Source: Eledone cirrhosa (taxonomy: Eukaryota). From it: 39,207 nt of DNA. Positions within the stretch are counted from its first letter, which is position 1, and every line of letters begins with the position of its first letter. This document shows, piece by piece, positions 13,859 through 35,055 of the stretch. Location of the stretch: the NCBI GenBank assembly GCA_964016885.1, contig CAXHJY010001680.1:1-39207 (forward strand). Direction: 5' to 3'. The notes under the pieces are model-generated. The model ran no database searches, was not told where the DNA came from, and saw nothing but the letters and a program-made list of their open reading frames with translations. The translations under genes were made by a program, and so were the position numbers.

Positions 13859-13959
13859 TACAAATGAAAGAATTACGAAAGAGAATACAGACTGTTAGAA
13901 CATGTTTTATAAACATATTCTAACAGTCTGTATTCTCTTTCGTAATTCTTTCATTTGTA
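13859..13959. repeat. Near-perfect 49-bp-arm palindrome abutting (TA)n
   Basis: TACAAATGAAAG..AGAACATGTTT tat AAACATATTCT..CTTTCATTTGTA, one mismatch. Confidence 0.9.
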
Positions 13960-17926: not shown

Positions 17927-17997
17927 TATTTTATTATGGGCATTTCAAAAACAAATATCATCATGGGATGATATCTGCGTTCTCATCAGATAAAATA
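17927..17997 (-). ncRNA. Type I minimal hammerhead ribozyme
   Basis: Minus: TATTTTAT-CTGATGA-GAACGCAGATATCATC ccat GATGATATTTGTTTTT-GAAA-TGCCCA-TA-ATAAAATA. Confidence 0.85.
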
Positions 17998-18176: not shown

Positions 18177-18439
18177 CCATATATTAACCATCTTTTGATG
18201 TTATATTATTTATAGTCCAGTCCTACAAACTGTAGAGTGCTACTTATCCGATATTTGCATTGCTTTATTGTGCTACAATAAAACTCACCTCCTATATTTA
18301 TATATATATATATATGTGTGTGTGTGTTCGGAGTCCCGAATTTTTCATATATATATATATATATATGAAATATTCGTATTACCCACTCTACTACCCCTGG
18401 TGAGTAATGTTCTAATAGGTTTTTACTGCATCTATTCTG

Positions 18440-18474
<35 letters not shown>

Positions 18475-19140: not shown

Positions 19141-20674
19141 CTAACAGTGCTGCGATCGAATGTGGCTTTTTAGCCCAGCCAATGATCTAAAATGTCTTGC
19201 ACAGAGTCGGCAACCAAAACATTTACTGGGAATAGTCGGCTGTGGTTGGAGTTCGTGTACTTTTGCATGTCGCTTGAGCCCTCCTGCTGATGTACATTCT
19301 CTACCACATGTTTGGCAAGCATGATGAGTAGCATCTCCAACAGCAGCCTGGTAGTCAATCACTGGTCTTACTTTATGACTGCGAAGATGACTTTCGAGTC
19401 CAGCTTTGCTTAGGCAGAGTCTCGCACATACGCTGCATGTCAGCACCATAGGAGGACCCTCGCCGTCTGGAAGTGCAACAGCAATGCCCTTCCTCACATC
19501 CCACTTTACTTTCTCGTATGCGATTCGAGATGCCTCAAAGGCAACTTTTCCCTCAGATACAGTCTTTCTCCATTTATTACGATCAGCAGCAATATTCTCC
19601 CATGTATCAGCAGAGATGTTAGCGTCTTTCAGAGAGGCTTTCAAGGAATCCTTATACCTCTTTTTGGTTTATGTGGCGGTCGTATTCCTTTAACCAACTC
19701 TCCATAAAAGTTGTTTTGGTATTCTAGAATCCTTCATCCTGGCAAGGTGACCACTCCAACGGAGTCGTTGCTTAAGCACAAGAGCTTCTATACTGTCACG
19801 CATAGAGCCTTCCAAAATCTCGACATCACTGATGTGGTCCCTCCAGTGAACGCCATGGATCCGTCTGAGACACATCTGATGGAAACGCTCCAATTGCTTA
19901 AGGTGGTGTCGATATGTGACCCAGGTCTCGCAGGCATAAAGAAGACAAGAGAGCACACATGCCCTGTACACCTTTACCTTTGTCCTCCTGCATATATCTC
20001 GCCGACCCCAGAATCACCTTTCTAGCTTTCCGAAAGCATCACTTGCTTTCCTAATCCTAAGTGAGATTTCACTGTCAAGGTTGCTGTATCGATTGACAGT
20101 GCTTCCCAGGTAGACAAACTGATCAACCACTCCAAGTCGTCTGCCATACACAGATGTTTGGTTCAGTGTACTGCTTACCAGGGGCAGGTTGGTACATGAC
20201 GACGATTTTCTTGAGACTTACAGTCAGACCTAGGGCAGTGCAAGCGTCAGAAAATGTATTCAAAATGTGCTGCATATCACTCTCTGTGTGCGCTACAAGA
20301 TCGCAATCATCTGCATACAAGAGGTCTCTTATGATTGATGTAAATACTTTTGTCTTCGCAGCAAAGCGCCTGATGTTAAATATGCTGCCTGAGGTTCGAT
20401 ATCGGATGTAAACACCATGCTCGCAATTCCTGAATGCAATACAGAAAACCATTGCAAAGTATATGGCAAACAGGGTCGGTGCTGGAATATCCCCCTGTTT
20501 CACTCCATTTTTTACTGAGATAGGCTCCGACATGTTACCCCCGACATTAACCCAAGCCTTCATGTCGTCATGGAAAGACCTAACTAAAGCAAGGAACTTA
20601 TCAGGGCAACCAAGTTTCTGGAGAACCTTCCATAATGCATCTCTGTTAACAGTATCGAAAGCTTTTGTCAGGCC
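19141..20674 (-). pseudogene. RTE/BovB-clade LINE, 5'-truncated: RT through three C-terminal C2H2 zinc fingers
   Basis: LTKAFDTV, GVKQG, LLYADD, FVYLGS, LLYACETW and RLRWSGH motifs; frameshifts near 20148, 19706 and 19663; in-frame TGA near 20015. Confidence 0.95.
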
Positions 20675-20708
<34 letters not shown>

Positions 20709-20713
<5 letters not shown>

Positions 20714-20897
20714 AGTAAGTAAGACCCCGACGGCTGAGCTCAAGCCGTTTCGACGGCTAATTCACAGAATTAGCCGTCGAAACGGCTTGAGCTCAGCCGT
20801 CGGGGTCTTACTTACTCCTATTACCCACTCTACTACCCTAAGTATTGAGTACTTTGGTGCGTTATGGTCCACCTGGTTCCTTACCACTTTTCCTTCG

Positions 20898-20899
<2 letters not shown>
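20709..20899 (+). mobile_element. Fold-back element, family D, copy 1: perfect 55-bp-arm palindrome plus tail
   Basis: Arms 20709-20763 and 20767-20821, loop ACA; tail homologous to 32725-32801; embedded in (TA)n. Confidence 0.9.
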
Positions 20900-20945
<46 letters not shown>

Positions 20946-21007: not shown

Positions 21008-21053
21008 CTTCATTTTTTTATTTGTATTGCAAGATACAAATAAAAAAATGAAG
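21008..21053. repeat. 20-bp-arm hairpin inside a dispersed repeat (20970-21270)
   Basis: CTTCATTTTTTTATTTGTAT tgcaag ATACAAATAAAAAAATGAAG; flanks similar to 27785-27935 and 28450-28493. Confidence 0.75.
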
Positions 21054-29077: not shown

Positions 29078-29621
29078 GATTAATTAATTAATATGTCCTA
29101 ATACATTAAATTATACCACTATATCAATATATGGTATGTTATGGGGTGGGGTTGCTGAGGTTTCGACCGGAACATTCCACAAGTACTCTTTCATAATATC
29201 TGTGCAGATGCCCTCCGCATCATTGTAACCTTTTATATTTTTATCCTCAAGACTACCCTTTCTCTGTATTGCATTATATAATGGTTTGACCATTACATCA
29301 TGCTTCATAGGTAGAGAACATAGTGATGACATCTTTGGACAACTGCCTAACATATGTGTGATATCTTCAATGTTTATTCCGCAGAGTCTGCATCTGTTGT
29401 CACATCTGTTGTCACATCTATGTATTTTGCTTCCATATCTGTCTTTTGGGTATCAGGTATTTTGTTGTTATTTCATCGCGAGAGCTAATATACAGGTAGG
29501 TAGGCATGTGTGTATGTATGGATGTGTATGGATGGATGTATGTATGTACGTATGTATCACTGTATATATGTATCTGATTGCAATTTGTATTTATGTACAT
29601 ACATGTATGTGCGTGTGCCAG

Positions 29622-32620: not shown

Positions 32621-32801
32621 ATAGGAACGAGTGGGACCCCGACGGCTGAGCTCAAGCCGTTTCGACGGCTAATTCTGGACAGAAACGGCTTGAGCTCAGC
32701 CGTCGGGGTCCCACTCGTTCTTATTACCTACTCTACTACTCTAAGTATTGAGTACTTTGGTGCGTTATGGTCTACCTGGTTCCTTACCACATTTCTTCCG
32801 T
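32621..32801 (+). mobile_element. Fold-back element, family D, copy 2
   Basis: 43-bp arms 32621-32663 and 32682-32724 (one mismatch); tail homologous to 20822-20899. Confidence 0.9.
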
Positions 32802-34529: not shown

Positions 34530-34584
34530 CATTTTATTATACATATTTCGGATGTACAACAGTACGTCCTCATCAGACAAAATA
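34530..34584 (-). ncRNA. Type I minimal hammerhead ribozyme
   Basis: Exact reverse complement of 34704-34758. Confidence 0.87.
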
Positions 34585-34703
34585 TAATGATACATGACAT
34601 ACCCTGAGATATTAAATGGTTAAGATTTAATCAGGGTATTAAATCTTAACCATTTGATTAAATCTTAACCATTTAACATCTCAGGGTATGTCATGTATCA
34701 TTA

Positions 34704-34758
34704 TATTTTGTCTGATGAGGACGTACTGTTGTACATCCGAAATATGTATAATAAAATG
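34704..34758 (+). ncRNA. Type I minimal hammerhead ribozyme
   Basis: TATTTTGT-CTGATGA(34712-34718)-GGACGTAC tgtt GTACATCC-GAAA(34739-34742)-TATGTA-TA-ATAAAATG; helix I extends to 11 bp. Confidence 0.88.
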
Positions 34759-34920: not shown

Positions 34921-35055
34921 ATAATATAAGATCAAAAGATGGTTAAAGGAGTGGTTTTGATCTTATATTATGCATACTCCAGTCCTACAAACTGTAGAGT
35001 GCTTCTTATCCGATATCTTCATTGCTTTATTGTACTACAATAAAACTCACCTCCT
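34921..35055 (+). mobile_element. Family A element with the palindrome centre (both hammerheads) deleted
   Basis: Same start ATAATATAAGATCAAAAGATGGTTAA and same tail as 17889-18293; only 17-bp arms remain. Confidence 0.85.

Follow-up and report, generated by a model that had tools for sequence, protein, structure and literature searches.

The window is the whole stretch of 39,207 nucleotides that was analyzed, and near its middle lies a short head-to-head repeat copy, here called a stub. The stub is composed of two perfect arms, 20709–20763 and 20767–20821, that are exactly complementary over 55 bp around a 3-nt centre, ACA, and a one-sided tail of 80 bp is added to the second arm. The stub sits between (TA)n runs, consistent with a (TA)n microsatellite having served as target. 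An earlier note, made from the letters of the window, had described 20709–20899 as a perfect palindrome built on the 3' half of a hammerhead ribozyme. Its letters and coordinates are correct, and the GAAA, the 6-bp helix III, the GUC and the GGGGT are found downstream of the centre where it placed them. The palindrome itself holds for 20709–20821 and does not extend to 20819–20898, which is a non-palindromic tail. Element positions are numbered from +1, the A of the TCAGT motif in the parent element described below, such that a position in the right arm equals its coordinate minus 20760. The features are as follows.

20676–20711, no strand: left flank, (TA)n target; its last three bases lengthen the palindrome
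20712–20763, minus strand: short arm, element +7 to +58, terminating at the short end
20764–20898, plus strand: tail arm, element +4 to +138/139
20764–20766, plus strand: centre ACA, parent bases +4 to +6 and part of the true loop II; a flush joint with zero added bases
20768–20778, plus strand: 3' strand of the true helix II (C11.1 at 20778), whose partner strand and 5' core are missing from the stub
20779–20782, plus strand: core G12 A13 A14 A15.1
20782–20800, plus strand: helix III, 6 bp; its loop TGAGCTC contains the palindrome GAGCTC
20801–20806, plus strand: C17 and the 3' strand of helix I; predicted cut after 20801 (+41)
20819–20898, plus strand: one-sided tail, 80 bp, which continues into the 5' UTR and ORF in full-length copies
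20899–20945, no strand: right flank, (TA)n then (TG)n
32623–32800, plus strand: second, older stub of a sister subfamily; short arm to +2, tail arm from about +19

Inspection of both arms demonstrated that the stub is without the hammerhead 5' core and without the 5' strands of helices I and II. An Rfam scan of the stub gave zero hammerhead matches and only hairpin-type miRNA models below threshold, and hammerheads were absent among the 150 of 198 matches listed in a scan of the window. A repeat search over the whole window was dominated by microsatellites. Non-LTR retrozymes are defined, in the available part of bioRxiv 10.64898/2026.07.22.740005, as tandem non-coding units with a whole hammerhead in each; the window stub is a single head-to-head unit with half a ribozyme. 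Taken by itself, it is an ordinary dead repeat copy.

Several other features of the window may be mentioned. A 5'-truncated LINE fragment on the minus strand (19141–20675; RVT_1, E 1.6e-16; C-terminal C2H2 fingers) abuts the TA run left of the stub. A decayed stub of a diverged family is found at 18328–18440 and consists of a piece of the +42 to +58 part, a TA run, and then the tail. At 34576–34712, a head-to-head palindrome presents two complete CTGATGA hammerhead-like cores facing outward; paired cores of this kind are also located at 17989/18114, and one core by itself is present at each of 2434 and 36109. Other non-microsatellite palindromes occur at 13859–13959, 21008–21053 and 34921–34971 with arms of 42, 20 and 17 bp, respectively. 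On the minus strand, a frame at 29111–29452 has a CxxC...H...C motif and resembles the end of a restriction-like-endonuclease non-LTR element.

The palindrome is far above chance yet common in the genome. An exact pattern identified 15,251 head-to-head centres genome-wide with none from the reversed-pattern control, and at least 40 genome copies are identical to the 133-nt right part. Two of 30 fetched copies of this unit run on upstream uninverted and lead to an ORF that carries RT and GIY-YIG-type motifs and is followed by a long 3' UTR, while in full-length copies the unit passes through the tail into a 5' UTR followed by the RT and GIY-YIG-type ORF. The stub is therefore the end of a Penelope-like insertion, as the earlier note had proposed. 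Units are spaced start to start by 3.5–3.8 kb in four of the six long loci fetched. [quoted passage not shown] There are 291 full-length relatives (top E 2e-173), nearly all without a name, and a Pfam scan of the ORF returned no families. A pattern search for read-through beyond the tail found only flank variants. In the parent 3' UTR (locus L053 and others), a 35-bp tandem repeat varies in copy number. In contigs of three runs from one study, loose ends occur at the joint as well as at the two outer ends, which shows presence only.

One ORF copy was examined for clade-specific motifs and displayed RWR117, DKT197, C652xCx5C, C749xxC and C777xH. Together with the (TA)n targets, these resemble the marks of Hydra-clade EN+ elements as given in section 11 of Craig et al. 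2021 (PMC8557442), namely RWK, DKT, a CxCx5C linker, CxxC/CxH and (TA)n targets. On the basis of these motifs and the target, the parent is classified as a Hydra-clade Penelope-like element; a first assignment to the Neptune clade was dropped in favor of Hydra on the ORF motifs, and a short upstream peptide resembling the end of an endonuclease was set aside as it lies outside the ORF. Insertion into (TA)n, an inverted 5'-truncated copy and a one-sided tail are also common to the Hydra clade in the available text of the same source. Compared to that account, the parent is longer (3.5–3.8 kb versus generally less than 3 kb) and the tail is also longer (80 bp versus 30–40 bp).

The remainder of the ribozyme is found in the uninverted parents. 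About 40–45 nt upstream, they have (A/G)CCCC-TTGANAA-G-NT-CGGCTATT, a stretch that supplies the 5' strand of helix I, a U3-A8 core, and CGGCTATT as the 5' strand of the true helix II. The parent carries a full predicted type I hammerhead with the core UUGANAA (U3-A8) and a helix II over a loop of about 35 nt; three helices, a Watson-Crick 3-8 pair, GAAA and NUH are all present. The GAAA, helix III and GUC of the stub match this fold, and the stub does carry a hammerhead 3' half. Two further parts of the earlier note do not agree with the parent. The central 12-bp hairpin that it read as helix II is not helix II, since its 5' strand is the inverted arm and was produced by the inversion; and the missing core, anticipated as CUGANGA, is UUGANAA in the parent of the window subfamily. 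The note had also suggested looking for copies with the core just upstream. A search for CTGANGA within 30 nt upstream gave 42 genome-wide matches, 20 of which were inspected in sequence context, and none of the 42 had the predicted CTGANGA-GACGGCTAATTC layout. The real core is missed by this search because the spacing tested was too short. Two other arrangements had been considered: a permuted hammerhead with CTGANGA downstream of the tail in the element's own sequence, for which no example was found in five full-length 5' loci, and an intron splitting the ribozyme, which was dropped after the core was located 40 nt upstream.

A long-spacing hammerhead pattern, which leaves positions 3, 4, 7 and 8 free, identified 6,051 uninverted copies with none from the control; the 5' strand of helix II is not fixed by the search patterns. 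A diverged family with 36 matches carries changes on each strand of helix II, with CAGCTAGAT opposite ATCTAGCTG, and some of its branches have C3-G8. Covariation was assessed with 31 hand-picked, related rows from eight subfamily groups. The core pair is U-A in 18 rows, C-G in 8, U-G in 2 and unpaired in 3. Helix II is 91.8% paired with three doubly changed pairs, as opposed to 26–50% for slid controls, and its paired fraction was matched by none of 500 shuffles, a test that is inflated by the relatedness of the rows. Since the rows are hand-picked and related, the 38 doubly changed cells represent only a few events. Across families, the alignment shows covariation in the predicted core pair and in helix II. 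U3-A8 cores were found in 69 of 77 copies examined from subfamilies a–e, and C3-G8 in 8 of 29 copies from subfamilies f and g. A C3-A8 mismatch is present in one subfamily that spread (6 of the 77 copies examined; roughly 19 of the 100 copies at the head of the listing, as judged by eye). Subfamily d (e.g., L160:1485–1617) has the core CUGAGAA (C3-A8), nearly always with G at position 7, and this sequence could also be read as a core without N7 plus an extra A. The hammerhead fold was the predicted minimum, or no more than 1.5 kcal/mol above it, in 7 of 12 rows from subfamilies a–e; for most old f and g copies, it was 2–26 kcal/mol over the minimum. RNAalifold, applied to the alignment, gave a consensus without the hammerhead. 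In L024:1431–1562 and the sister subfamilies a–e, a possible outward lengthening of helix I (GGAA/TTCC) stops at the same position as the short end (+58).

The hammerheads of Hydra-clade elements listed in the available text of PMC8557442 all have C3-G8 and a loop 2 of 3–10 nt, in contrast to U3-A8 and about 35 nt here, and the one listed for Hydra-1_oBim differs in sequence from the one described here. A long loop alone is not new, since the plant element PLE-X1_sMoe is listed there with a loop 2 of 34 nt. Schistosoma Cercyon and other PLE hammerheads are described in the available part of Cervera and de la Pena 2014 (PMC4209133) as type I ribozymes within the pLTR with a long helix II, a palindromic loop III and, in a Schistosoma Cercyon variant, U3-A8 covariation, features that are shared here. 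The ribozyme here differs from these in a helix III of 5–6 bp that is able to close as a monomer.

Signs of cutting at the predicted site were sought in the distribution of arm ends. A set of 30 loci, selected through the tail end only, provided 27 downstream arm ends; six of these, belonging to four elements, fall at +41 to +43 (p 0.006 against a uniform null, the arms not being independent). When a joint of this kind was used as the query, both arms started exactly at +42 in 24 of the 30 loci fetched. The exact +42/+42 joint could also stem from a 2-bp CG microhomology; however, the +42 ends that lie beside filler or another partner (L094, L104, L107, L289) do not come from microhomology. 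This minor class of stubs, starting at the predicted cut, hints at cleavage in vivo. An alternative is that the hammerhead-like fold persists only as a relic or a protein-binding structure and that cutting has been lost. Such a loss is considered unlikely, given the compensatory change between U3-A8 and C3-G8, the invariant core bases (some of which were fixed by the search patterns), the occurrence of the +42 ends in the U3-A8 subfamilies a and b, and the reported activity of U3-A8 cores in vitro (PMC3088659). It does draw some strength from the amplification of the C3-A8 subfamily, from a competing hairpin that masks GAAA in the predicted minimum of subfamily a, and from ribozyme mutants of an anole element that still inserted in vitro according to the available text of PMC11167929.

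The positions where the arms end upstream are confined to a narrow zone. In the initial 50 centres listed for contig 1, every one of the 100 arms terminates from -4 to +10, and peaks are seen at +1/+2, +5 and +7; the centre pattern would have admitted arm ends to about -16, and they are almost absent between -5 and -16. Among the 30 best matches to the unit, selected by identity to the unit only, 28 end at -4 to +7 and two read through, and the turn points are therefore non-random, which the earlier note had made a test of its model. Arms of the diverged family end at +1 to +11. This zone falls within loop II of the true ribozyme and coincides with a YYAGT motif. All 31 rows examined keep the A of this motif, at +1, whereas the remaining loop II diverges. 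YYAGT is taken to match the invertebrate initiator. Position +1 is likely a putative Pol II transcription start inside loop II, judging from motif and position. The RNA 5' end would then differ from those of the PLE hammerheads in PMC4209133, as far as the available text goes, by lying inside loop II; in D. virilis, the available parts of PMC2377424 and PMC4209133 taken together place the start upstream of the ribozyme. TATA and Inr-like motifs are a point of likeness with the pLTRs of Adineta vaga in the available text of PMC3846280. No PLE start site inside a hammerhead was found in the literature covered, chiefly freely readable papers.

As the main alternative, the same ends could be produced if two cDNAs are made and +1 is not a transcription start. 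Reverse transcriptase would pause at the loop II structure of a read-through RNA, or the RNA would be cut there in some other way, and YYAGT would be kept for tertiary contacts of the ribozyme. The stops do lie just beyond the top of helix II near small loop II hairpins that are possible in several subfamilies; however, these hairpins vary by family while the stop zone is constant at +1 to +11, and the stronger helices I, III and II would already have been traversed before the stop. The TATA-like box at -30 is not conserved and is limited to the young subfamilies, being present in a–c, weak in d and e and absent in f and g. The base preceding +1 in 35 spacer-flanked arms is G in 9, the parent-like T/C in 24 and A in 2, a weak cap-G signature. 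Set against these are the near absence of arm ends from -5 to -16 and the start site that Penelope pLTRs are known to contain (available text of PMC2377424 and PMC3846280). A pause or alternative cut is thus regarded as improbable, and a start at +1 is preferred.

The outer ends of the stubs are equally regular. One short arm (+58) and one tail arm (+139) were present in 48 of 50 stubs (p 2e-12 versus free choice) and in 28 of 30 stubs of the diverged family. According to the earlier note, nascent cDNA folded back at its own helix II and primed the second arm; self-priming has also been proposed in the available part of PMC3846280. For a snapped-back cDNA, the tail arm must always be the longer one because a copy of a tail-less cDNA gains no tail. 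Arm reach was counted in 45 stubs, after omitting 5 of the 50 with unassigned or like ends. In 19 of them it is the short arm that extends further 5', in 16 it is the tail arm, and 10 are tied; nine of the 45 have both arms extending to the RNA end, at +2 or beyond. In long head-to-head copies, the short arm is far longer in four of five (L082, L086, L090, L223; the exception is L085). Self-priming is thus not the general route, and the helix II on which the fold-back was supposed to occur is absent from the parent RNA. The window copy alone, with its tail arm reaching further (to +4, the short arm to +7), is compatible with a snap-back, and subfamily a often has the self-complementary GTAC at the centre of its joints. 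The less likely alternative in the earlier note, a substrate strand cleaved in trans, might apply at the RNA level. Both arms come from one subfamily in 76 of 78 assignable elements (18 of 96 were unassigned; fetched loci only), which is equally well explained by a single template; under two cDNAs, it would mean that they derive mostly from one RNA or one source locus. Element L190 has arms from two subfamilies that differ at three diagnostic bases. As an explanation of the stubs in general, fold-back priming has very little probability left, and it could apply to a minority only. The route that fits best is the joining of two cDNAs head to head. By eye, 40 of the 50 centres differ and hence every joint formed anew, and this, together with the presence of several subfamilies that each match a longer parent, makes it hardly credible that the palindrome itself is mobile, either MITE-like or as a half-ribozyme substrate gene copied as such, in spite of its high copy number and fixed outer ends.

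Inverted pLTR insertions in Adineta vaga are similar in their head-to-head arrangement, the tail on one arm and the junction palindrome (available text of PMC3846280). There, palindromes were read as self-priming on an antisense template, whereas the arm-reach counts here favor two cDNAs, and only the initial 58 and 139 nt of the RNA remain in the arms here. The two-cDNA reading fits the behavior of the anole Poseidon protein PAc, which cuts and extends both strands in vitro at an AT-rich target and has two internal RT start sites bounding the tail, in an AC-rich start region (Frangieh et al. 2024, PMC11167929, available text). In that text, the start sites are not allotted per strand, the inversions are unexplained and no homology between primer and start site is reported; here, TAT follows both sites.

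Building on the observed parent element, the fixed outer ends at +58 and +139 with one per arm, the clustered arm ends, and the parent fold with +1 in loop II, the stub is read as a short insertion, head to head, of a Hydra-clade Penelope-like retroelement into a TA microsatellite. It probably arose from two separate cDNAs that each extended as far as the RNA 5' end and were connected at that point. The RT/endonuclease would cut both target strands and start one cDNA at +58 and the other at +139. Since both start sites precede TAT, they are able to pair with a TA primer. With +1 as the presumed Pol II start, the RNA would begin with only the 3' half of a ribozyme because +1 is inside loop II; the read-through 3' copy would hold a complete ribozyme and could cut after +41. 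Most cDNAs would terminate at the RNA 5' end, with lengths of 58 or 139 nt, and would be joined flush, by 1–4 bp of microhomology, or with filler bases.

A wider scheme is put forward tentatively and may well prove incorrect. By starting inside loop II of its own hammerhead, the RNA would be cut in cis by the 3' copy only, leaving a terminal repeat of +1 to +41 comparable to retroviral R. A dimeric RT would make two 'strong-stop' cDNAs, each from its own start site, most of which would be joined head to head to give the 15,000 stubs, while some would jump to the RNA 3' end and give rise to pLTRs and full-length copies. Among 32 long copies, only two insertions of at least 2 nt were found between -200 and +58, duplications at +4 to +21 and +8 to +11, which offer a hint on strand transfer by way of the +1 to +41 repeat. 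Neither a strong-stop model for PLEs nor an arm-reach test was found in the literature covered as above.

Inverted ends, tails, (TA)n targets, the Hydra clade, U3-A8 cores and, in one plant PLE, a long loop II are already published. What is new with respect to the literature searched is the arm-reach test, together with a putative start site that lies within the ribozyme. In thousands of stubs, a single insertion preserves the two points at which its cDNAs began and the two at which they ended. This evidence bears on the origin of the inverted ends, tails and pseudo-LTRs of Penelope-like elements, and on the role of the hammerhead. It disfavors self-priming and supports a separate cDNA for each cut strand. 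It also suggests a simple way in which the 5' ribozyme copy may be stopped from cutting, namely by an RNA start within the ribozyme.
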